64,000 bases of DNA from an uncultured Desulfovibrio sp. (GTDB lineage Bacteria > Desulfobacterota > Desulfovibrionia > Desulfovibrionales > Desulfovibrionaceae): NCBI GenBank assembly GCA_900546145.1, contig URBN01000001.1:5144-69143 (forward strand), written 5' to 3'. Positions within the stretch are counted from its first letter, which is position 1. Every line of letters begins with the position of its first letter. Shown piece after piece: positions 30,072 through 49,144 of the stretch. The notes under the pieces are model-generated. The model was given only the letters and a program-made list of their open reading frames with translations, did no database searches and was not told the DNA's origin. The translations under genes and the position numbers were made by a program.

Positions 30072-30575
30072 ATGCCTATGTTGAGATTGCGTTTACCTTC
30101 TTCGGCCGTCACAGCGGCCCTGGCATCATGCGCTCTTGCCGGTTTTCTGCTCCTGGGCGCGTCCATGCCCACGCCTGCCGGCGCAGCCGCCGATGTGGCT
30201 GGTCTCTACACGGATGCCCTCATTAGCGGGGATGCGAAGGCTCTGGAGAGGCTTCTGGCGCCGAACTTTATCTTCATCGCCCCTAACGGCCATATTGAAG
30301 ATGGCAGTCACTTCCTTGATTCCATCCGCAGCAGGCACTTCGTCGTTTCCGACATGACTCTCAAGAACATGAGAGAGACGAGAACCGGCGATGTCCGCCT
30401 CATTACCGGCAATGGCACCTTCATGGCACGCTCGGATAACCCGCTTCCCGGTGGACTTATGCGTCTGACTATGGTGACGGACAGGAGCAGCGGAAGCGAG
30501 AAGATTCTTCTCGTGCAGGTGACGCCGGTCATCCCCACACGCGACTGTACGGACGGCAACTGCCGCATCCGGTAG
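30072..30575 (+). CDS. secreted NTF2-like/DUF4440-like protein
   Basis: It has a signal peptide (AGFLLLGASMPTPAGAAA) followed by a SnoaL-like fold. Confidence 0.45.
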   Translation: MPMLRLRLPSSAVTAALASCALAGFLLLGASMPTPAGAAADVAGLYTDALISGDAKALERLLAPNFIFIAPNGHIEDGSHFLDSIRSRHFVVSDMTLKNMRETRTGDVRLITGNGTFMARSDNPLPGGLMRLTMVTDRSSGSEKILLVQVTPVIPTRDCTDGNCRIR

Positions 30576-30597
30576 TGTCCGTCCTTCTTCGGATGTC

Positions 30598-30629
30598 AGG
30601 GCAGGAAGAGTTTTTCTTCCTGCCCTTTC
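30598..30629 (+). terminator. intrinsic terminator (plus strand)
   Basis: GGGCAGGAAGA-gttttt-TCTTCCTGCCC is followed by TTTCTG. Confidence 0.45.
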
Positions 30630-30638
30630 TGCTGTACG

Positions 30639-30675
30639 AAAAAAAGAGGCCCGCGGCGTAAGCCACGGGCCTCTT
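30639..30675 (-). terminator. intrinsic terminator for flxA (minus strand)
   Basis: On the minus strand, the stem GAGGCCCGTGGC...GCCGCGGGCCTC is followed by TTTTTTT. Confidence 0.45.
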
Positions 30676-30692
30676 TCGTTCAGGAGGGAATA

Positions 30693-31970
30693 CTACATTT
30701 CGGGCGGAAGCTCATCGAGCTGCTTCTGCGAAAATACCGGGCCATCGAGGCAGACGTATTTGCCGCCGATGCCGCAGCGGCCGCAGATGCCGATACCGCA
30801 CTTCATTCTCTTTTCAAGGGAGGTGAAGACGTTTTCGTGCGAGAAGCCAAGTTCATCGAGAGCCTGCAGGGTGAACTTGATCATGATGGGCGGTCCGACG
30901 AGAACAGCCACGGTATTGTCCGGGCTGGGTTTCAGCTCGCGCAGCACGTTGGGGATGAGTCCCACATTGTGCGTCCAGCCTTCAGCTTCCCGGTCGATGG
31001 TAAGCGTGCAGTCCAGATCCGGATTATTCATCCAGCCTTCCAGCTCGTAGCTGTAAGCCAGATCCTGGGGGGACTTGCCGCCATACAGGAGGCTGATCTT
31101 GCCGTAGTCTTCCTTATGTTCGAGCAGGTGGAGCATGACAGTGCGGATAGGCGCCATGCCGATGCCGCCGCCAATGAAGAACACGTTCTTGCCCTTCCAG
31201 TCCTTGAAAGGCCACGGACGTCCGAGAGGAGCCCTGACGCCGACCTTGTCGCCCTTGCAGAGCTCATGGACAGCGGTGGTCACTTCGCCGGCCTGCATGA
31301 CGGAGAACTGGATGTAGTCCTTCATGGAAGGCGGGTTGTTGATGACGAAGGTGGATTCGCCCACACCGAAGACAGAGAGCTGACCGACCTGCCCGGGTTC
31401 GAAGGTGAAGTTCTTCATTTCCTCGGGATCATCGAGGACAACGCGAATCGTCTTGATGTTGTGCGTTTCGCGGATGACATCGACGACAGTGGCAGCCATG
31501 GGTTTGTATGGATTGCCCTTAATCATCGGGCGGGGAGCAACGGGCGTCAGCTTGCTGCCGTCCGGATTAGGCTTGAGAACAGTCTGTGTTGTCACGGTTT
31601 TCTCCGCCTCTTTTTTACTTTCAGGGGATGTTGCAGCGGCCTCGCGGGCGGGCTCTTCAGCCTTTGGCGCCTCGGCAGGGATCTCAGCCTCGGAGGCGGG
31701 AGCGGCCTCCTTCGCAGCCTCGGCCTCTTCCTTCTCAGGCTGGGCTTCGGCTTTGGCAGCCTCGGCGGGAGCCTTGGCTTCTTCCTTCACGGCAGGAGCT
31801 TCAGCTTTGACAGCTTCGGCGGGAGCCTTGGCTTCTTCCTTCACGGCAGGAGCTTCAGCTTTGACAGCCTCGGCAGGAGCGGCCGTCAGAGTCTTTTTGC
31901 TTCTGCGCGTGGTGTTCTTTTTGGCTGAGGCCGTCTTTTTATTTTTTCCGGATGTTTTCTTTGTAGCCAT
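30693..31970 (-). CDS. flxA: FlxA: FAD/NAD(P)-binding ferredoxin-reductase-like subunit with C-terminal Fe-S cluster and a 150-aa Lys/Ala/Glu-rich repetitive N-terminal extension
   Basis: The C-terminal 275 aa have an AsrB/HydG/PyrK-like fold (GGGIGMAPI, with Cys motif CGIGICGRCGIGG...C). The N-terminus is AKAPAEAVKAEAPAVKEE repeats. The gene is translationally coupled to flxB (10-nt gap). Confidence 0.7.
   Translation of the reverse strand: MATKKTSGKNKKTASAKKNTTRRSKKTLTAAPAEAVKAEAPAVKEEAKAPAEAVKAEAPAVKEEAKAPAEAAKAEAQPEKEEAEAAKEAAPASEAEIPAEAPKAEEPAREAAATSPESKKEAEKTVTTQTVLKPNPDGSKLTPVAPRPMIKGNPYKPMAATVVDVIRETHNIKTIRVVLDDPEEMKNFTFEPGQVGQLSVFGVGESTFVINNPPSMKDYIQFSVMQAGEVTTAVHELCKGDKVGVRAPLGRPWPFKDWKGKNVFFIGGGIGMAPIRTVMLHLLEHKEDYGKISLLYGGKSPQDLAYSYELEGWMNNPDLDCTLTIDREAEGWTHNVGLIPNVLRELKPSPDNTVAVLVGPPIMIKFTLQALDELGFSHENVFTSLEKRMKCGIGICGRCGIGGKYVCLDGPVFSQKQLDELPPEM
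31757..31880. repeat. 54-bp tandem repeat (about 2.3 copies) inside the flxA 5' region
   Basis: The unit CAGCCTCGGCGGGAGCCTTGGCTTCTTCCTTCACGGCAGGAGCTTCAGCTTTGA is repeated with one mismatch. It encodes the 18-aa peptide repeats. Confidence 0.7.
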
Positions 31971-31982
31971 TATGAACCCTCA

Positions 31983-33053
31983 TTACTTTGAGCTTTCAGC
32001 AGGCTCTTCGGCGATGGCATCCAGAACGATCTGACGGATATCAATGCGTGCGGGGCAGTTGCTGATGCAGCGGCCGCAGCCCATGCAGGAGAAGGCGCCC
32101 CAGTTTTCCGGATAGGTGGAGAACTTGTGAGTGACGCGCTGGCGCATGTGCGTGGCCTTTGTGGGACGCGGATTGTAGCCGCTGGCTTCCTGTGTAAACA
32201 GGGCGCTCATGCAGTTATCCCAGGAACGGATACGGCGGCCGGGCTTGCCGACGCCGGTACCTTCGTCCGTGATGTTGAAGCAGTAGCAGCTCGGGCAGAA
32301 GTACGTGCAGGCGCCGCAGCTGAGGCATCTGTCGGACTCTCTGGTCCAGAAGTCGAGATCCCGGAACTTGGCGAGAACGCGGGCGGGAGCCTGGGAAAGG
32401 TCGGGCTTCTTGCTCAGAGTGGCCCAGGCAGCCTTGCGTACATCCATAAGTTCCTTTTCTCTGTCCGCGGCGTCGGGAAGCTGGCAGGCTTCGAGGACGG
32501 CCTTGCCCTTTTCGGACACGGCCTGCAGGATGTAGCCGTCAGGCATCTCGGTCATGAGGACATCGGAGCCCTCCGGTGAGGAGGGACCGCCGCCGACCCA
32601 GTGACAGAAGCAGGTGTTGCAGCCGGTATTACAGGTCAGGGTAAAGACTGTGAGAGCCTTGCGCCTGGCCTCATAATAGGGGTCTTTGTAGAGGCCGTTC
32701 ATGTAGGGACGGTCGAGGGTGGCGTAGCCTCTGGCATCGCATGCCCTGCAGCCGAACACAACGGTGGGTTCTGCTTCGATAGTGTCGTTGATGGTCAGGT
32801 TGTATTCTCCGGGCTGGTCCGGATTGGGTTTCTTCTCGTAGGTCAGAAGAGTCTCACTGTGGGGGAGGACGGCGTCCTTGGCGGGCACAGTCGCTTTGGC
32901 CAGGGTGAACTCAAGTCCTTCATGCCACGGTTCGAAGACGATGGACTTTTTGACGGCGGGTTTCTCGACGGGAACCAGAACACGGTTTTCCTTGGCCAGG
33001 AAAGCGAGGAGGGCCGGGAGATCCGATTTTTTTGCGAAACGATAGATAGGCAT
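31983..33053 (-). CDS. flxB: FlxB: AsrA-like polyferredoxin iron-sulfur subunit
   Basis: The 356-aa protein has several CxxCxxCxxxCP clusters (CLSCGACTYFCPSC, CMGCGRCISNCP). Confidence 0.6.
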   Translation of the reverse strand: MPIYRFAKKSDLPALLAFLAKENRVLVPVEKPAVKKSIVFEPWHEGLEFTLAKATVPAKDAVLPHSETLLTYEKKPNPDQPGEYNLTINDTIEAEPTVVFGCRACDARGYATLDRPYMNGLYKDPYYEARRKALTVFTLTCNTGCNTCFCHWVGGGPSSPEGSDVLMTEMPDGYILQAVSEKGKAVLEACQLPDAADREKELMDVRKAAWATLSKKPDLSQAPARVLAKFRDLDFWTRESDRCLSCGACTYFCPSCYCFNITDEGTGVGKPGRRIRSWDNCMSALFTQEASGYNPRPTKATHMRQRVTHKFSTYPENWGAFSCMGCGRCISNCPARIDIRQIVLDAIAEEPAESSK

Positions 33054-33056
33054 CTT

Positions 33057-34529
33057 TTACAGCTCCCTCTGCTTAATATGCGCTTCCTCTTTCTGGTACG
33101 TGAGGAGCGGCGGTTCGGCTTCGGCATCCATGCCGCTCTGATAGCCGTCAAAAAGCCCGGCTATCACGCGGGCGATCTGCTGGCGCAGGGCCAGAATCGG
33201 GATGCCCATCGGGCAGGCCCTCTGGCATTCGCCGCAGAGCGTGCAGCGGCCGGCAAGGTGCATGGTGTGGATGCACTGGAAGTACAGTTTCTCGCGGGTC
33301 GTGTTTTCCTGTGTAATGAAGTGCGGCTCGCGGGAATCGGCGATGCAGTAATCCTTGCACACGCACATGGGGCAGGCGTTGCGGCATGCGTAGCAGCGGA
33401 TGCAGCGTTCCATTTCGCCTTTCCAGAAGGCGAAGCGCTGTTCCAGCGTCATGGCGTCGAGCATAGCCAGCTCAGGAGGAGTTCCGGGCTGTTTTTCAAT
33501 GGCCGGAGCTTCACCGAAGGACACATCGGACACCTTGGCCTTGGGCATGGCGCAGTTGTAGCACTTGCCCTGGGCGCAGTCGGTGATGCAGAAGCGGTGC
33601 TCCTTGCCATCGGCGGTGATGGTCACACCGGCCTCGTCATAGACGACCTTGTCGATGGTCCTGTAGCGGCCGAGTTCCTGGTCGATGCGGGCCATGTCGA
33701 AGGTGCCTTCGCAGGGCAGGGAGAAGATGGTGATGTTTTCTCTCGGGATGAGGTTTTCCTGGAGGAGCTCAACCACGGAGCGGGAGTCGCAGCCCTTTAC
33801 CACCACGCCGACTTTGGGGAGCTTGTCCTGCGGCAGCGTACGGCCGATGAGGCCGGTGAGATAGGTGGCGGGGTTGTTCACGTTGAAGGGACCCCACACC
33901 AGTTTGTCCACGTCTTCAGCCCTGCGCATGAAGAGCGGCACGGTATGGGCCGCGTCGTCGCCCTGCTGCCAGCCGATGACGATATCGAGGCCGTTGCCGA
34001 GCTTTTCTTTGATGGCGGCCTTGAGCTCGTCGAGCTTCGCCTTCTGGCCGGTGCCGAGAGGACGCAGGGGCTGCAGGGCCATATCGGCAACCTCAAGCAG
34101 CTTGTCCGCGTTCTCGAGACGGGGCGCGGGTCCGAGCTTGTGCACTCTTTCGGTGAAGGCGGTCACCACGTGCTGCCAGCGCTGGCCTTCCGAAGCGGAA
34201 ACCCAGGTGTACTCGAAGCGCCTGTCGTCGATGCCGAGGATGGGGAGGAACTGCTTCAGGACTTCGAGCCTGCGGCGGGCGTAGAAGTTGCCTGCAGAAT
34301 AATGGCAGTCATTGGGATGGCAGCCGGAGACGAGCACGCCGTCGGCGCCATTGACGAGGGCCCTCAGAATGAAAAGGGGATCAATGCGTCCCGAGCAGGG
34401 GACGCGGATAATCCTGAGGTCAGTGGGCTGCTTCGCGCGCGCGACGCCAGCCGTATCGGCGCCCCCGTAGGAGCACCAGTTGCACAGGAAAGCGACAATC
34501 CTGAGCTCTTTGCCTTCTAGAACTGGCAT
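33057..34529 (-). CDS. flxDC: FlxD-FlxC-like: MvhD-like domain fused to iron-sulfur (F420-non-reducing hydrogenase beta-like) domain
   Basis: The N-terminal 140 aa are MvhD-like (IVAFLCNWCSYGGAD...IRVPCSGR). The C-terminus carries CIRCYACRNACPMC and CTLCGECQRACPMG clusters. Confidence 0.6.
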   Translation of the reverse strand: MPVLEGKELRIVAFLCNWCSYGGADTAGVARAKQPTDLRIIRVPCSGRIDPLFILRALVNGADGVLVSGCHPNDCHYSAGNFYARRRLEVLKQFLPILGIDDRRFEYTWVSASEGQRWQHVVTAFTERVHKLGPAPRLENADKLLEVADMALQPLRPLGTGQKAKLDELKAAIKEKLGNGLDIVIGWQQGDDAAHTVPLFMRRAEDVDKLVWGPFNVNNPATYLTGLIGRTLPQDKLPKVGVVVKGCDSRSVVELLQENLIPRENITIFSLPCEGTFDMARIDQELGRYRTIDKVVYDEAGVTITADGKEHRFCITDCAQGKCYNCAMPKAKVSDVSFGEAPAIEKQPGTPPELAMLDAMTLEQRFAFWKGEMERCIRCYACRNACPMCVCKDYCIADSREPHFITQENTTREKLYFQCIHTMHLAGRCTLCGECQRACPMGIPILALRQQIARVIAGLFDGYQSGMDAEAEPPLLTYQKEEAHIKQREL

Positions 34530-36478
34530 AACGTGTTAACCTCCGCGAGAATCTCATTGTCGGTAGCGTGCGAGAGCTGGATGGCACCCTGCGGGCACGT
34601 GGACGTGCACACGCCGCAGCCCTGGCAGACAGTGTCGATGACCTTGGCCTTGAGCTGTCCGCGGAAGGCTTCTTCCTTGATGGCTCCGAAGGGGCAGCAC
34701 TTGATGCACTTGCCGCAGTCGACGCATCTCTTCACGTCAACGTGGGCAATCTGCGGATCGTTCTGCAGCTTGTCGCGGCTGAACAGGGAAAGAACCTTGG
34801 CCGCGGCTGCGGAACCCTGGGCGACGGAATTCGGGATATCCTTGGTGCCCTGGCAGACGCCGGCGAGGAACACGCCGGCCGTATTGGTTTCCACGGGGCG
34901 CAGCTTCGGATGGCTTTCCATGAAGAATCCGTAGTGGTCGTAGGAAATGCGCAGTTTTTCGGCCAGGGCGGCAGCGCCGTGGCTGGCTTCGATGCCGACC
35001 GCAAGGACGACCATGTCAACGGTCACCTGGACCTGGGTGCCGAGAAGGGTGTCGGCGCCCATGACCACGTACTGACCGTTTCCGTCAGGGTAGATCTTGG
35101 AAACACGGCCGCGGATGTACTCTGTGCCGTATTCCTCGACAGCCCTGCGGGTAAACTCGTCATAGCCTTTGCCCACAGCGCGGATGTCCATGTAGAAGAC
35201 ATAGGACTGGGAATCCGGGATGTGGTCCTTGGTCAGAACGGCCTGCTTCGCGGTGTACATGCAGCAGAAGCCGGAGCAGAGGTTCCTGCCACGTGAGGGA
35301 TCACGGGAGCCGACGCACTGGATGAAGGCGATCTTCTTGGGCTCCTTGCCGTCGGAGGGGCGCACGATGTGGCCGCCGGTGGGGCCGGAGGCGTTGAGCA
35401 GACGTTCGTACTGCAGTGAGGTAATGACGTCGGGGTATTTGCCTCCGCCGTACTGCTCGTACACGGTCCAGTCCATGAGGTCATAACCGGTGGCGGCGAT
35501 GATGCAGCCGACCTTTTCCGTGATGAGCTCGTCCTTCATTTCATAATTGATGGCCTTTGTGGGGCACACCTTGGCGCAGACGCCGCATTTGCCCGTGGTC
35601 AGCTTTTTGCAGTACTGCGGGTTGATGCTGGCGCGTTTGGGAATGGCCTGGGGGAACGGGATGTTGATGGCAGTGGTTTTGCCGACGTTCTCATTGAAGT
35701 GGTCCGGCACGTTCTTGGTGGGGCACTTTTCCGTACACGTGCCGCAGCCGGTGCACTTGGACCAGTCAACGTAGGTAGCGCGCTTCTTGATGGTGACGTC
35801 AAAGTTGCCGACATAGCCGGACACGTCCTGAACCTCGGAGCACGCGTAGAGGGTGATGTTGGGGTTCTGGGACACGTCCACCATCTTGGGACCGAGAATG
35901 CAGGCGGCGCAGTCCACGGTGGGGAAGGTCTTGTCGAGCTTGGCCATCTTGCCGCCGATGGTGGGCTCGCGCTCCACGAGCAGGACCTTGATGCCGGCAT
36001 CAGCGCAGTCGAGAGCAGCCTGAATGCCGGCGACGCCGCCGCCGATAATCAGGACGCGCTTGTTGATGTCAAAGCTCTGAGCCTGGAGGGGACGGTTGTG
36101 GCGCAGTTTGGCCACGGCGATGCTGACGAGTTCGGTGGCCTTGTTGGTGTTGGCTTCCTTGTCCTTGCCGATCCAGGAGACGTGCTCGCGGATGTTGGCC
36201 ATTTCGAACATGTAGCGGTTCAGTCCGGCACGTTCGACAGTGCGGCGGAAGGTGGGCTCGTGCATGCGCGGGGAACAGGAAGCGACGACCACGCCCGTGA
36301 GGTTGTGCTCGTGAATGGCCTTTTCGATGGCCGCCTGGCCGGGCTCGGCGCAGGTGTACATTAAGTCTGTGGCGTAAACGACGTCGGCAAAACCGAGGGC
36401 GTTCTTGGCAACCTGGGCACAGTCAACGGTGCCGCCGATGTTGCTGCCACAGTGGCAGACAAAAACTCCTATCCTCAT
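34517..36478 (-). CDS. hdrA: heterodisulfide reductase subunit A-like flavoprotein
   Basis: It has the HdrA N-terminal Cys cluster (IGVFVCHCGSNIGG), an FAD site (VLIIGGGVAGIQAAL) and a C-terminal ferredoxin domain. A GGAGG ribosome-binding site is present. Confidence 0.9.
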   Translation of the reverse strand: MRIGVFVCHCGSNIGGTVDCAQVAKNALGFADVVYATDLMYTCAEPGQAAIEKAIHEHNLTGVVVASCSPRMHEPTFRRTVERAGLNRYMFEMANIREHVSWIGKDKEANTNKATELVSIAVAKLRHNRPLQAQSFDINKRVLIIGGGVAGIQAALDCADAGIKVLLVEREPTIGGKMAKLDKTFPTVDCAACILGPKMVDVSQNPNITLYACSEVQDVSGYVGNFDVTIKKRATYVDWSKCTGCGTCTEKCPTKNVPDHFNENVGKTTAINIPFPQAIPKRASINPQYCKKLTTGKCGVCAKVCPTKAINYEMKDELITEKVGCIIAATGYDLMDWTVYEQYGGGKYPDVITSLQYERLLNASGPTGGHIVRPSDGKEPKKIAFIQCVGSRDPSRGRNLCSGFCCMYTAKQAVLTKDHIPDSQSYVFYMDIRAVGKGYDEFTRRAVEEYGTEYIRGRVSKIYPDGNGQYVVMGADTLLGTQVQVTVDMVVLAVGIEASHGAAALAEKLRISYDHYGFFMESHPKLRPVETNTAGVFLAGVCQGTKDIPNSVAQGSAAAAKVLSLFSRDKLQNDPQIAHVDVKRCVDCGKCIKCCPFGAIKEEAFRGQLKAKVIDTVCQGCGVCTSTCPQGAIQLSHATDNEILAEVNTLCQF

Positions 36479-37392
36479 GCGTTGCCTCCTTTGGCGGCCT
36501 TGTCTCTGGCCGCGGTGCTCAGCGCCCTGATTTTGTCAATGACGCGATCGGGGCTGACACAGAGCTTCTTCAGTCCGAGTTCGTCGGCGCTGCATCCGAA
36601 AGCGATACCCATCAGCTGGGTATAGTAGAGGACAGGAATGTTGAACTTGGTGCCTTCGGCCTTGGCGGCCTGCTTCTGGCGCAGGTCAAGGTTCATCTGG
36701 CAGAGCGGGCAGCACACGGCGACGCAGTCGGCGCCCATACGCACGGCGAGCTCAAGGATGCGCCCGGAGTTGCGGGCCGTGAGCGGGCGGTGCGGGATGC
36801 CGGAGGAAGCGCCGCAGCATTCCGTCTTCAGGGGGAAGTCGAGGATGCTGTCAGCGCCGCAGGCAGCGAGCAGGCTTTCCATGAGGCTCGGATTCTCGGG
36901 ATCGCCGAAATTCATGAGTTCCGGCGGACGGCTCATGAGGCAGCCGTAGTAGGGAGCGATCTTGATGCCGGCGAGGGGGCTGGTCACGTGTTTCCTGATC
37001 GCGTCAGCGTCCCTCAGGCGGCCGATGCACTGCATGACGGAAATGGTTTCGGGAAGCTTCTCCGGAGCGGGCTCGTCGAGGAGTCCGTTCACCCTGTCCC
37101 TGAACTCGGGGTTCTCCATGCGCTGGCGGGCGTGGAGAAGGTTGGAGAGGCAGCTCGGGCAGGGGGTGACCACCGTGTCCGCACCCTGTTTGGCAGCCAG
37201 GGAGAGATTGCGGGTGCAGAGGGCCGCGGAAAGTTCCGTGCTTACCGCGTGAGCGGGGGTGGAGCCGCAGCAGTTCCAGTCTTTGATTTCTTCCGCCTGG
37301 ATCCCGAGGACCTTGCAGACGGCCTGAGAGGAGAGCTCGTAGTCAAGAGAGGACCCCTTGGCCGAGCATCCGGGGTAATATGCTAACTTCAT
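36475..37392 (-). CDS. hdrB: heterodisulfide reductase subunit B-like (CCG domains)
   Basis: The CCG-domain cysteine clusters are present (WNCCGST, PCPSC, ECCGASSG). It overlaps hdrA and hdrC by 4 nt each. Confidence 0.85.
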   Translation of the reverse strand: MKLAYYPGCSAKGSSLDYELSSQAVCKVLGIQAEEIKDWNCCGSTPAHAVSTELSAALCTRNLSLAAKQGADTVVTPCPSCLSNLLHARQRMENPEFRDRVNGLLDEPAPEKLPETISVMQCIGRLRDADAIRKHVTSPLAGIKIAPYYGCLMSRPPELMNFGDPENPSLMESLLAACGADSILDFPLKTECCGASSGIPHRPLTARNSGRILELAVRMGADCVAVCCPLCQMNLDLRQKQAAKAEGTKFNIPVLYYTQLMGIAFGCSADELGLKKLCVSPDRVIDKIRALSTAARDKAAKGGNA

Positions 37393-37976
37393 GGACGGAC
37401 CCCTTCCTTCTTGGCACGTTCCTTATAACGTTTGAAAATGCGCGCCACGGATTCCGCAGCCGCCTTGTCGGGAATGACATGGGGCTTGATGCTGAGCTTG
37501 TTCTTCATAAGGGCCATGGGCGCAAGATCGAGATCGGTGTACAGGCGCAGGGAACGCAGCATGTACAGGGCCATGGTGCCGATTTCATAGCTGCGTCCGA
37601 ACGCCCTGACGGTGTCCAGGAACGAAAACCAGAATTTTTCCATACGGCGGACGCTGACCACGTTCTTGCGGCGGGCCATATGACGGAGCGTCTCCATAAC
37701 CCCGGCCACGTCGATGTCGTTGGGGCAGCGCAGGGAGCAGGTGGAGCAGGACAGGCACATCCAGATGGATTTGGAGCTCAGTACTTTTTCCTTCAGGCCG
37801 AGCTGAATGCCCCGCATGATCTGGTTGGGCTGCATGTCGTAGTCTGGCGATGCAGGACAGCCGGCCGTGCAGTTGCCGCACTGGTAACAGTTGCTGATGT
37901 TTTGCCCGCTTTCGGTCTCAACCTCTTTCTGGAAGGCCGGGTCCTTTGAGCGGACGAGATCAACGGTCTCTCTCAT
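37389..37976 (-). CDS. hdrC: heterodisulfide reductase subunit C-like (2x[4Fe-4S])
   Basis: It carries CYQCGNCTAGCP and CLSCSTCSLRCP. It is the first gene of the operon, with a GGAGGG ribosome-binding site. Confidence 0.85.
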   Translation of the reverse strand: MRETVDLVRSKDPAFQKEVETESGQNISNCYQCGNCTAGCPASPDYDMQPNQIMRGIQLGLKEKVLSSKSIWMCLSCSTCSLRCPNDIDVAGVMETLRHMARRKNVVSVRRMEKFWFSFLDTVRAFGRSYEIGTMALYMLRSLRLYTDLDLAPMALMKNKLSIKPHVIPDKAAAESVARIFKRYKERAKKEGVRP

Positions 37977-46849: not shown

Positions 46850-49144
46850 ATGGCCAGCAAAATTGGCGTTTATTTTGACGCTTCCAATATCGGTGGGGGC
46901 CTTGATGTCGAGGCTCTCGCTGCAGGCGTGACGGCCAAATGGGGCACTCTTGCTCCCGTTGTGAAGGTTTTCCCCGTCCTCGCCGATAACGTGGAGGCCA
47001 TCAAAGCCGACATTACTGCCGAGCAACTTGATGGTGTTCTCCTCTGCGGTGCCAGCCCCCGCGCTGACGCCGAAATCTTCCGTTTCCCTGTCCTCACCGA
47101 ACATGTGAACCTGCGTGAGCAGTGCGTCATGTGCTTCCAGGACAAGGACGGCAATCCGCTCAAGGAAGGGCAGGCCGCTCCTGAACTGCTCACCATGATG
47201 GCCACTGACTATGTCAATATGGGCGTCGTGAAGATGCAGAAGGGCAACCTTCCCGATTCCGCGGCTCTCCCCGAGGGGGGCACCCAGCGCATCCTTGTTG
47301 TTGGCGGTGGCTTCACCGGCCTTACCGCCGCTCTTGAAGGCGCCCGCAGCGGCTACGAAGTCGTGCTCGTCGAAAAGACCGGCGAACTCGGCGGCGCTGC
47401 CAAGAACATTCCTGTCGGCTCCCCGCTTTCCGCTCCGTGGGACGACAAGGAACCCCTCAAACTTGACGAGAAGATCGCCGCTGTCAAAGCCGAGAAGGCC
47501 ATCACCGTGTATATGAACACGACGGTCGCCAAACTGGCCGGACAGCCCGGTGCGTACGAGTGCACCCTTGCTACCCCGAATGGCGAGAAGGTCGAGAAGA
47601 TCGGCTCCGCTGTCGTGGCCTGCGGCTGGGTGCCCATGGACGACAAGTACCTCGCTCCGCTTGGTCTCGGCTCTTCCGATAAGATCGTGACCGCCGCTGC
47701 CTTCCAGAAGATGGTGGCTCAGGGCCGCGTTGACGCCAAGCGTATCGCCTTTGTGCTCGACACCACCGTTGCTGAAGAGGAATTCAGGAAGCAGGCCGAA
47801 GAGGCCGAAGCTGCCAGGAAGGCCGCCGAAGAGGCTGCCGCCAAGGAAGGCGCTGACGAGAAGAAGGAAGAGGGCACCGAGAAAATCTTCGTGAAGGAAG
47901 ACCTCGAGTCCATCAAGCACCTGCGCTATTCCAACGTGGTCAACTCCGTGGGCATGCTCCGCCTGGCCAACACTGTTGCCGAGCAGACCAATGACAAGAC
48001 CCAGTGCTATGTCATCTACCGCAACATGACCATGCCCGGCATCTTCGAGCGCTTCTACAAGACCATGCAGAACCGCCTCGGTCTCATGATGACCAAGGCC
48101 GATGTCACCTCAGTTAAGGAAGACGGCGACCATGTCGTCGTGTCCTGCGCCAACACCCTGCTTGGCATGGACTTCGACCTTGACTGCGACCTCGTTGTTC
48201 TGCCCACGGGTATTGTTCCCGTGACCGCCAAGGATGCCGTGATGCAGTTCGAGTACAGGCAGGGACCTGACTTCCCCGACTTGGATCATTTCGACGGCTA
48301 CGTCGACTCCAACTACATCTGCTTCCCCTACGAAACCCGCCGTACCGGTGTGTACGCCGCCGGCTGTGTGCGTCAGCCCATGACCCTCGACGGCTGCGTC
48401 GAGGACGCCCGCGGTGCCGTGCTCAAGGCCATTCAGGCCATCGAGTGCGCTGAACGCGGCGTTGCCGTGCATCCCCGCTCCGGTGATAAAACCTACCCGG
48501 TGTTCAACTTCGCCCGCTGCACGCAGTGCAAGCGCTGCACCGAAGAATGCCCGTTCGGCGCTCTTGATGACGATGAAAAGGGTACGCCCAAACCGAATCC
48601 CGGCCGCTGCCGCCGCTGCGGTACCTGCTTCGGTGCCTGCCCCGAACGCGTTATCTCCTTCGCCAACTACAATATCGATATGATCGGCTCCATGATCGGT
48701 CAGGTCGCCGTTCCCAAGGACTTCAAGAATGACGGACCCCGTGTCCTCCTCCTCGCCTGCGAGAACGACGCGTATCCTGCCCTCGACATGGCTGCCCAGC
48801 GCCACGAAACCTGGAGCCCCTACGTACGCATTATCCCCGTGCGCTGCCTCGGTTCCGTCAACGCCATCTGGATCTCCGATGCCATGAGCAAGGGCTACGA
48901 TGGTGTCATGCTTCTTGGCTGCAAGTACGGTGACGATTATCAGTGCCACTTCATCAAGGGTTCCGAACTCTGCTCCAGACGTATGCAGAACATCGCTGAA
49001 ACCCTGAACCGCCTGGGCGTTGAGCCCGAGCGTGTTGAGCAGTTCGAAGTCGCCATCGACGAGTATGACAAGGTGCCTGGCATGATCAACGACTTTGTCA
49101 AGCGCATCGAGAAGATCGGCGCCAACCCGTTCAAGGCCATGTAG
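46850..49144 (+). CDS. qmoB: quinone-interacting membrane-bound oxidoreductase subunit B (HdrA-like + MvhD-like + Fe-S)
   Basis: The 764-aa protein has FAD motifs, CTQCKRCTEECP ferredoxin motifs and a C-terminal MvhD-like domain. Confidence 0.9.
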   Translation: MASKIGVYFDASNIGGGLDVEALAAGVTAKWGTLAPVVKVFPVLADNVEAIKADITAEQLDGVLLCGASPRADAEIFRFPVLTEHVNLREQCVMCFQDKDGNPLKEGQAAPELLTMMATDYVNMGVVKMQKGNLPDSAALPEGGTQRILVVGGGFTGLTAALEGARSGYEVVLVEKTGELGGAAKNIPVGSPLSAPWDDKEPLKLDEKIAAVKAEKAITVYMNTTVAKLAGQPGAYECTLATPNGEKVEKIGSAVVACGWVPMDDKYLAPLGLGSSDKIVTAAAFQKMVAQGRVDAKRIAFVLDTTVAEEEFRKQAEEAEAARKAAEEAAAKEGADEKKEEGTEKIFVKEDLESIKHLRYSNVVNSVGMLRLANTVAEQTNDKTQCYVIYRNMTMPGIFERFYKTMQNRLGLMMTKADVTSVKEDGDHVVVSCANTLLGMDFDLDCDLVVLPTGIVPVTAKDAVMQFEYRQGPDFPDLDHFDGYVDSNYICFPYETRRTGVYAAGCVRQPMTLDGCVEDARGAVLKAIQAIECAERGVAVHPRSGDKTYPVFNFARCTQCKRCTEECPFGALDDDEKGTPKPNPGRCRRCGTCFGACPERVISFANYNIDMIGSMIGQVAVPKDFKNDGPRVLLLACENDAYPALDMAAQRHETWSPYVRIIPVRCLGSVNAIWISDAMSKGYDGVMLLGCKYGDDYQCHFIKGSELCSRRMQNIAETLNRLGVEPERVEQFEVAIDEYDKVPGMINDFVKRIEKIGANPFKAM

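Follow-up and report, generated by a model that had tools for sequence, protein, structure and literature searches.

A lineage-wide, repeat-bearing N-terminal tail on the FlxA subunit of Desulfovibrionaceae: evidence for its translation and a candidate role as a cationic anchor on an extensible spacer

Introduction

What could about 150 charged and repetitive residues be doing at the N-terminus of a soluble electron-bifurcating flavoprotein? The question is raised by flxA (30693-31970), an open reading frame (ORF) of 425 residues found in a 64,000-nucleotide stretch of DNA from an uncultured Desulfovibrio sp. (contig URBN01000001.1 of assembly GCA_900546145.1, positions 5,144 to 69,143), the whole of which was analyzed and is here called the window. 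Coordinates are those of the window, and features lie on its minus strand unless the plus strand is stated. Residues 1-151 of the predicted protein form a tail that stands ahead of the catalytic core. The cluster to which the gene belongs has a central part in the recycling of NADH and the metabolism of ethanol in Desulfovibrionaceae, and in a relative, Bilophila wadsworthia, the hdrCBA-flxDCBA cluster, whose name is adopted here as used in that study, is essential for gut colonization (PMC12125255). No description of an N-terminal or disordered extension of FlxA was found in the literature searched, which comprised open-access papers only.

The results presented here indicate that the tail is very probably translated, selected and disordered. 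Judged by comparison of sequences, it is not peculiar to the window genome but is a lineage-wide feature of Desulfovibrionaceae FlxA, with a conserved tip, a conserved motif and a conserved junction to the core. Taken as a whole, the interpretation of this translated disordered tail as a cationic anchor carried on an extensible, proline-punctuated spacer is given a slightly better than even chance of being correct.

Results and Discussion

Organization of the FlxA tail

FlxA starts with MATKKTSGKNKKTASAKKNTTRRSKKTLTA, followed by two copies of (K/A)APAEAVKAEAPAVKEEA and a diverged third unit, KAPAEAAKAEAQPEKEEA. The first 27 residues (MATKKTSGKNKKTASAKKNTTRRSKKT; 31890-31970) form a polycationic tip with a net charge of +11 and a pI of 12, which contains no acidic residue and no large hydrophobic residue beyond Met1. 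The tip is followed by an Ala/Glu/Pro/Lys spacer (residues 28-125; 31596-31889), a polyampholyte predicted to be disordered, and by a junction conserved in ortholog alignments (residues 126-151, VTTQTVLKPNPDGSKLTPVAPRPMIK; 31518-31595), which is of low confidence in the AlphaFold2 monomer model. Residues 28-148 have a net charge of -8 and a pI of 4.8, and consist of 31% Ala, 20% Glu, 13% Pro and 12% Lys.

The AlphaFold2 model, built from a 31-sequence alignment, shows no secondary structure in residues 1-150 and a mean predicted local distance difference test score (pLDDT) of 52 or less in each 10-residue block of this region; the core is confident from about residue 157 to residue 385. The closest solved relative of the core, the gamma subunit of P. 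furiosus sulfhydrogenase I (9nez_C, 292 residues; E = 5.8e-52), aligns through its residues 10-282 to residues 150-416 of FlxA. The extension of about 150 residues ahead of the core, described in a first-pass annotation of the window made from the sequence alone, is consistent with both the limits of this alignment and the onset of the confidently modeled region. Searched in isolation against Pfam at E values up to 10, the tail gave meaningless matches only.

Within the spacer, Tandem Repeats Finder together with a unit-by-unit comparison of the DNA delimited three in-frame 54-bp units (31722-31883), in the register 31830-31883, 31776-31829 and 31722-31775, each of them encoding 18 residues arranged as two 9-residue sub-units. 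The program reported a period of 54, 3.1 copies, 90% matches and a score of 258 over 31716-31880, an array of which the repeat noted in the first-pass annotation (31757-31880) is the near-perfect part. The 18-residue unit, KAPAEAVKAEAPAVKEEA, contains three Lys and four Glu and has a net charge of -1, and the motif PAVKE is present in two of the three window units.

No gene product of the 64-kb window other than FlxA has a polybasic or A/P/E/K segment. Just one more low-complexity stretch of the window is strongly charged; this one, EEFRKQAEEAEAARKAAEEAAAKEGADEKKEE (47765-47884, plus strand), is acidic and probably helical.

Translation of the tail from the upstream start codon

In the window, flxB and flxA are joined by a translational coupling site (31968-31985) comprising the flxB stop codon (TAA, 31983-31985), a Shine-Dalgarno sequence (GAGGG, 31977-31981) and the flxA ATG (31968-31970), the stop and the start being 12 nt apart. 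No Shine-Dalgarno site was found ahead of either Met149 (31524-31526) or Met158, two in-frame Met codons further downstream. Orthologs were compared in 74 species representatives with an untruncated locus, and in 60 of them the frame stays open over the 58-219 codons that separate the upstream ATG from the core, despite many insertions and deletions. A GGAG, GAGG or AGGA site is located 4-13 nt before the long-form ATG in 54 of 56 species, mostly overlapping the flxB stop. In contrast, 20 of 56 species have no in-frame ATG at all within the last 25 codons before the core, and a Shine-Dalgarno-like site accompanies the internal ATG in only 2 of the 36 species that have one, against a background of 12%.

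The ratio of nonsynonymous to synonymous substitution rates (dN/dS) is 0.06-0.78 in the tail, below 1 in all 16 related species pairs, and 0.006-0.125 in the core, figures that are rough because low-complexity sequence is hard to align. Across species, codons 2-5 of the MATKK start show synonymous variation. Also, of the 85 tandem-repeat periods detected in tails, 82 are divisible by 3, and a promoter scan of 30400-32300 revealed no promoter-like site within the tail.

These observations bear on the alternative that the upstream 450 nt are non-coding and that translation starts from an internal Met near the core or, as a variant, that both forms are made as in the case of cyanobacterial FNR. 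In addition to the in-frame Met149 and Met158 of the window, this alternative can draw on three entries sourced from the National Center for Biotechnology Information (NCBI) that list the short form only, and that count against a translated tail: P0298 and P0299 (286 residues; P0299 is the D. piger RefSeq entry WP_303900248.1), and P0284 (277 residues), which begins at the equivalent of Met149. However, P0298 is identical to the C-terminal 286 residues of a 430-residue ORF (P0301) and P0299 is nearly identical to it, and other gene callers report 430-481 residues (P0301, P0019) at the same or near-identical loci, suggesting that the tail is simply un-annotated in these NCBI-sourced records, whose short models are accordingly judged wrong on comparative grounds. 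An internal start is also difficult to reconcile with frames that stay open in 60 species, with repeat periods in multiples of 3, with length differences in a sister lineage that are exact multiples of 18 residues, with dN/dS values below 1, or with the position of the conserved Shine-Dalgarno site; moreover, Met149 is not conserved among orthologs and initiation at Met158 would remove the invariant residues G152, N153 and Y155. Internal initiation is considered very improbable, and translation of the FlxA tail from the upstream ATG appears supported. The ribosome-binding site, the tight coupling to flxB and the translated extension that had been proposed from the window are in agreement with these comparative data, while the internal start at MIKGNPYKP, also raised at that stage, is not.

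Conservation of the tip, the spacer motif and the junction

Nearly all of the 80 related loci recovered are labelled Desulfovibrionaceae, two being labelled otherwise (Odoribacter, Bulleidia) and a few generically. The closest species representative is an uncultured rumen Desulfovibrio (RUG514), and several sample names among the related loci indicate a gut or rumen origin.

The tip is conserved in the orthologs as MATKKT.GK, MSTKK, MAVKKSK and similar sequences. Over 60 species the first 25 residues carry a net charge of +5.7 on average, with 77% of the species at +5 or more, and the first acidic residue occurs at a median position of 22 (interquartile range 16-31). The tip stays at the extreme N-terminus and expansions occur only downstream of it.

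In the spacer, a motif of the form (E/K)-A-(K/E)-A-P-[AV]-[VIL]-[KR]-E-(E/K)-A recurs every 8, 9 or 18 residues, PAVKE being the most widely shared 5-mer. Its center, P-[AV]-[VIL]-[KR]-E, which contains an invariant Glu, occurs 96 times in 35 of 60 species where composition-preserving shuffles predict 0.8 occurrences, an excess to be discounted to some extent, and to the disadvantage of a functional reading, given that the motif was defined post hoc and that duplication within species and common ancestry inflate the counts. Survival of the motif in species whose cores are only 68-70% identical nevertheless argues for constraint. The junction, LKPNxDGSKLTPVxPRP (or GxMLRExxPRP), is kept even where only about 20 residues precede the core, as in MATQSKKEGMLRELTPRPLPQ, so that the spacer seems to have been inserted between a basic N-terminus of ancestral origin and the junction.

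The composition of the tail, rich in Lys, Ala and Pro, agrees with its initial description as a set of KAAP-like basic repeats resembling those of histone H1 and AlgP. On this view the tail would be a histone H1/AlgP/PhaF-like polyanion-binding domain in which KA(P)-type repeats bind the nucleoid or polyphosphate. Some orthologs lend themselves to such a description, their first 40-50 residues being KAAPK-like (e.g. MATKKTSGKAKTASKTAAKAAPKTAPKEAPK), and the number of AlgP repeats likewise varies between strains (PMC9239181). The repeats themselves do not: the window unit is a slightly acidic polyampholyte, the region downstream of the tip is as acidic as described above, the KPAA tetrapeptide periodicity is absent, the Pfam search found no family for the tail at E values up to 10, and the conserved motif carries its invariant Glu. 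The polycationic part is the non-repetitive 27-residue tip only. A histone H1/AlgP/PhaF-like domain is therefore regarded as highly unlikely, and this element of the first-pass annotation was abandoned.

Two further candidates were evaluated and rejected. A bacterial microcompartment encapsulation peptide, which would be a terminal amphipathic helix of about 18 residues, was dismissed since the tip lacks a hydrophobic face, positions 2-25 having on average 0.23 large hydrophobic residues and no predicted helix. A SUMO-like psi-K-x-E consensus was dismissed as well, the invariant Glu being found at K+1 and not at K+2.

In-frame variation in repeat number

In the lineage of the window, FlxA proteins of 393, 407, 425, 443 and 461 residues occur with identical or 99% identical cores, and the contigs that encode them carry 2-5 units between flanks that are 99.8-100% identical over 1-1.6 kb. 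Five units, u1 to u5, can be told apart by synonymous differences in their DNA. The five-unit allele, u1-u2-u3-u4-u5, was found in three independent samples (L081-L083), and its four AV-type units differ at 4 sites, all of them synonymous. The window has a three-unit allele, u1-u2-u5; a second three-unit allele, u1-u4-u5 (L087, L088), encodes the same protein; and the two-unit allele is u1-u5 (L084-L086). Among 15 listed cluster members of a sister lineage, the number of units ranges from 1 to 8 and the proteins measure 391, 409, 445, 463, 481, 499 or 517 residues, which is 391+18n; each of these lengths occurs on 2-18 contigs, and 12 of the 15 members are encoded on contigs longer than 100 kb.

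Copy numbers were mostly derived from short-read assemblies, which may collapse repeats and to that extent weaken the case for an extensible spacer; since units are identical to one another over stretches that exceed small k-mers, some of the short alleles may be collapsed longer arrays. Neither the longest alleles nor the unit differences between lineages can be explained in this way. With this caveat, the in-frame copy-number variation suggested in the first-pass annotation is borne out by alleles of 2, 3 and 5 units in public assemblies, and the window repeat qualifies as an in-frame coding tandem repeat, its period being divisible by 3 and its alleles differing by whole 18-residue units.

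Expansion of this kind is not restricted to the two lineages. A tandem repeat was detected in the tails of 36 of 59 species, with best periods of 9-108 nt, those of 24 and 27 nt being the commonest, and the best period is a multiple of 3 in 35 of the 36. The prevalence of such periods across species indicates that in-frame expansion has occurred many times.

A cationic anchor on an extensible spacer

According to the interpretation favored here, the 5' 453 nt of flxA encode an intrinsically disordered N-terminal tail made up of tip, spacer and junction. The tip, of about 25 residues and with a charge of +11 in the window, would serve as an electrostatic anchor for a polyanionic partner. By analogy with the Lys-rich tails of AlgP, PhaF and the PAKKA repeats of Ku, nucleic acid would be the default partner, polyphosphate, an acidic lipid or an acidic protein such as ferredoxin being the alternatives. 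The spacer, composed of units of 8-9 residues (in the window, pairs of sub-units forming the 54-bp repeat), would grow and shrink in frame through slippage or unequal recombination between units. Punctuated by prolines, it would behave as an extended flexible tether whose length sets the distance between the NADH-oxidizing Flx-Hdr complex and the partner, and the junction LKPNxDGSKLTPVxPRP would lead from it into the flavoprotein core. Disordered-chain scaling predicts root-mean-square end-to-end distances of about 8 and 10 nm for chains of 148 and 222 residues, respectively, with contour lengths of 53-80 nm. That the tail acts as a tether with an anchoring tip is given close to, and at most, an even chance. 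The more specific proposal of a localization device, which would dock the Flx-Hdr complex on the nucleoid, rRNA or polyphosphate, or capture ferredoxin, with the spacer tuning reach or valency, is considered unlikely.

The main alternative is a tolerated low-complexity expansion at a solvent-exposed and permissive N-terminus, where slippage-prone repeats are gained and lost, with no specific function or at most an effect on solubility, the first codons reflecting selection for unstructured mRNA at a translationally coupled start. Several findings weigh against the anchor-and-spacer interpretation, and most of them speak for tolerance. The tail varies from 6 to 219 residues, and 14 of the 74 species have only 6-30 residues before the core, the spacer having been lost or never gained, from which it follows that the spacer is dispensable for catalysis. 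The spacer shows no conservation of net charge, which varies from -9 to +12, with the window among the most acidic. For 15 pairs the core ratio is defined, and in these the dN/dS of the tail exceeds that of the core by 1.5-fold to more than 20-fold. The codon usage of the tail (31527-31970) is atypical: the G+C content of third codon positions (GC3) is 0.52-0.59, compared to 0.76 in the core and 0.74-0.82 in the other genes of the operon, and GCT and CCT are over-used (0.43 versus 0.20 for GCT among Ala codons, 0.44 versus 0.10 for CCT among Pro codons), both of which fit weaker translational selection. Codon 2 prefers GCA or GCT, unlike the genome, and the A-rich first codons could have been selected at the mRNA level to aid initiation. 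Also, K-rich tails with PAVKE repeats are found on unrelated proteins, such as a GlgB-like enzyme of other gut bacteria. Finally, the sequence by itself cannot separate DNA, RNA, polyphosphate, membrane and ferredoxin as its partner.

Tolerance in turn accounts poorly for other properties of the tail. The codons that influence translation initiation are roughly the first 12, and the acid-free basic block extends well past them, to a median residue of 22. The dN/dS remains below 1 in 16 of 16 pairs, repeat units differ at synonymous sites only, the motif is retained in species with cores as divergent as those mentioned above, and the tip keeps its place at the extreme N-terminus while expansions accumulate only downstream. 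A purely tolerated expansion is, on balance, considered rather unlikely.

The charge of the spacer also bears on a block-polyampholyte model of self-association, in which the tip of one molecule would bind the acidic spacer of another to form a Flx-Hdr condensate or metabolon, with the number of repeats tuning its valency. In the window lineage charge is indeed strongly segregated, with +11 in the first 27 residues and -8 in the following 121, and PAVKE is a multivalent motif. A precedent is offered by the RhlB protein of P. aeruginosa, where a disordered N-terminal extension rich in Pro and Arg/Lys drives phase separation (PMC13462270). The acidic spacer, however, is not conserved, and since the spacer is net positive in 41 of 60 species an attraction between tip and spacer cannot be the conserved function. 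Self-association is thus held to be improbable.

Distribution of tailed and tail-less homologs

In order to assess the wider distribution of the tail, FlxA was scored against 1.84 billion representative proteins. Members of the HydG/AsrB/FlxA family are overwhelmingly 265-295 residues long, with a core that begins at residue 2-20; in most of the longer ones the core is fused to an FlxB-like or another domain. Among the 119 closest database proteins whose N-terminal region is intact, 98 have a low-complexity tail of 50 residues or more, and 93 of these 98 start with M-[AS]-..-K/R.

Tail and junction are both missing from seven FlxA orthologs (L055, L063, L065, L072, L074, L075 and L080), several of them from loci labelled Mailhella and the others from uncultured Desulfovibrionaceae. 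These proteins start with a short Cys-containing peptide (MSEHNCGCS, MSHSCSCN, MSNCSC) directly before GNPY, which may provide an extra metal or cluster ligand.

Outside the Desulfovibrionaceae cluster, low-complexity N-terminal tails occur on two further HydG homologs, both encoded within hydB-hydG-hydD-hydA hydrogenase clusters. One (P0269; L089, 5001-6341) has a tail of about 190 residues made of KKKSxKPKTLKKK-type repeats and lies on a contig with archaeal marker genes; the other (P0253; L091, 4789-5850) has a 90-residue Gly/Ala/Ser/Lys tail and lies on a contig with an ABCE1/RLI-like gene. These archaeal HydG tails represent independent acquisitions on the same subunit.

PAVKE repeats also occur on other proteins. 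Among 21 matches in metagenomes there were 3 FlxA, 2 GlgB-like, 1 TonB-like and 1 SPOR-like proteins, in addition to several short or unclear ORFs. In L107 and L106 the repeats are located in a Pro-rich TonB-like spacer and in a linker before a C-terminal region that, by eye, looks like SPOR, and by analogy such linkers fit a spacer role of the repeats better than a specific docking motif. In L100 and L102 they form KPAVKE/KPAVRE repeats in the Lys-rich C-terminal tail of a GlgB-like branching enzyme. The only named relative is from Faecalibacterium, indicating that this tail is not a Desulfovibrionaceae module but a separate case in gut Firmicutes, with little bearing on FlxA.

Gene identity and operon context

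The core of the 425-residue ORF, which with the stop codon spans 30693-31517 (residues 152-425), is a ferredoxin-NADP reductase-like FAD/NAD(P)-binding domain with a C-terminal Fe-S binding motif. Pfam identifies NAD_binding_1 at residues 265-367 (E = 4e-16) and DHODB_Fe-S_bind at residues 386-418. The HydG/AsrB-type matches to NCBIfam were all below cut-off, and no FlxA-specific model exists among the NCBIfam families. On the basis of these domains and of the hdrCBA-flxDCBA synteny, naming the gene flxA, as the first-pass annotation had done, and assigning its product to the FlxABCD-HdrABC NADH dehydrogenase/heterodisulfide reductase, a complex characterized biochemically by the oxidation of NADH with coupled reduction of ferredoxin and DsrC, appear justified.

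The gene is the last of an hdrC-hdrB-hdrA-flxDC-flxB-flxA operon transcribed from a single strand. Upstream of it are flxB (31983-33053; Fer4_22 in Pfam), a fused flxD-flxC (33057-34529), hdrA (34517-36478; FAD and 4Fe-4S domains), hdrB (36475-37392; CCG domain) and hdrC (37389-37976; Fer4_17). The ends of neighboring genes in this five-gene segment (31983-37976) either overlap or are 3-12 nt apart. The fused ORF has 490 residues, combines an MvhD/FlpD domain with an FrhB-C/4Fe-4S part and has a 13-nt overlap with the hdrA stop. For Bilophila, six locus tags are given for the seven gene names of the cluster (PMC12125255), which may point to a similar FlxD-FlxC fusion in that organism.

About 30 nt past the flxA stop, a terminator-like hairpin is followed by a T-run (30648-30664), an assignment by consensus match only. 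Hairpin and T-runs are contained in 30595-30729, between the convergent flxA and a DUF4440 gene (30072-30575, plus strand), and probably act as a bidirectional terminator. An Rfam scan of 30400-32300 gave no RNA family near threshold, and its sub-threshold matches all fell on the terminator hairpin. Antisense to the tail there is a 209-residue ORF (31405-32034, plus strand) with no evidence of being a gene, which is probably a by-product of the GCN-rich composition of the repeats.

Implications

In most gut and rumen Desulfovibrio, FlxA is apparently 60-220 residues longer than in some NCBI-sourced records, and gene models, mass predictions, antibodies and expression constructs for this subunit may therefore be wrong. 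In D. piger the tail measures about 106-144 residues, and for the 425-residue protein of the window the calculated mass is about 46 kDa with the tail and about 31 kDa for the core only. The tail evolves by gain and loss of repeats, apparently even between strains, and the repeat locus could offer a simple means of typing strains.

If the cationic tip anchors the complex, FlxA would offer an example of spatial organization of a soluble bifurcating enzyme. Should the tail function in localization, the spatial organization of NADH-dependent bifurcation would be a selectable and fast-evolving trait in gut sulfate reducers, and the Lys-rich tails of archaeal HydG would be a convergent case. If the tail is instead neutral, it would still illustrate cleanly how a disordered region at a permissive terminus can be tolerated and evolve fast.

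Comparison with known systems

The core of FlxA (residues 152-425) is a member of the HydG, AsrB and NfnA/PyrK family, and it is the tail that sets the protein apart from the solved or typical HydG/AsrB members of 265-295 residues. For an N-terminal extension on a flavoprotein of the wider FNR family, the closest parallel is cyanobacterial PetH, which occurs as long and short isoforms: an N-terminal CpcD-like domain anchors FNR to the phycobilisome, and an internal start can give the short form. In PetH, as proposed for FlxA, the extension serves localization and not catalysis. In PetH, however, the extension folds as a domain and its partner is known, and the sequence of FlxA gives no support to internal initiation.

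The KPAA tails of AlgP, PhaF and H1-like proteins and the PAKKA tails of mycobacterial Ku and HupB resemble the FlxA tail in being of low complexity, disordered and rich in Lys and Ala with Pro. These tails are electrostatic anchors to DNA or polyphosphate, and the 27-residue tip of FlxA, as well as the first 40-50 residues of some of its orthologs, is of that character. In contrast, the FlxA repeats are polyampholytic or slightly acidic with a period of 8-9 or 18 residues and not of 4-5, and the tail is N-terminal, belongs to a redox enzyme and shows no recognizable homology to these proteins. Three features that define the AlgP/H1 family were looked for and are absent from the FlxA tail, namely short basic repeats of the KPAA/AAKP type, a strong positive charge of the repeats and similarity to a described family, which places the tail outside it.

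The spacer can also be compared with another class of sequences. The linkers of 2-oxo-acid dehydrogenase E2 subunits and TonB-type spacers are extended and flexible, combine Ala/Pro with Glu/Lys, and vary in length between species. The FlxA spacer shares their composition and their species-dependent length, and as a predicted unstructured, Pro-punctuated and Ala-rich segment it resembles a linker. Whereas the linkers of E2 and TonB join two folded domains, the distal element in FlxA is a short cationic peptide only, and neither a swinging-arm chemistry nor an envelope-spanning role is apparent. By analogy, the FlxA tail would work like a combination of known elements, that is, disordered Lys/Ala/Pro tails, Ala/Pro linkers and in-frame variable-number repeats.

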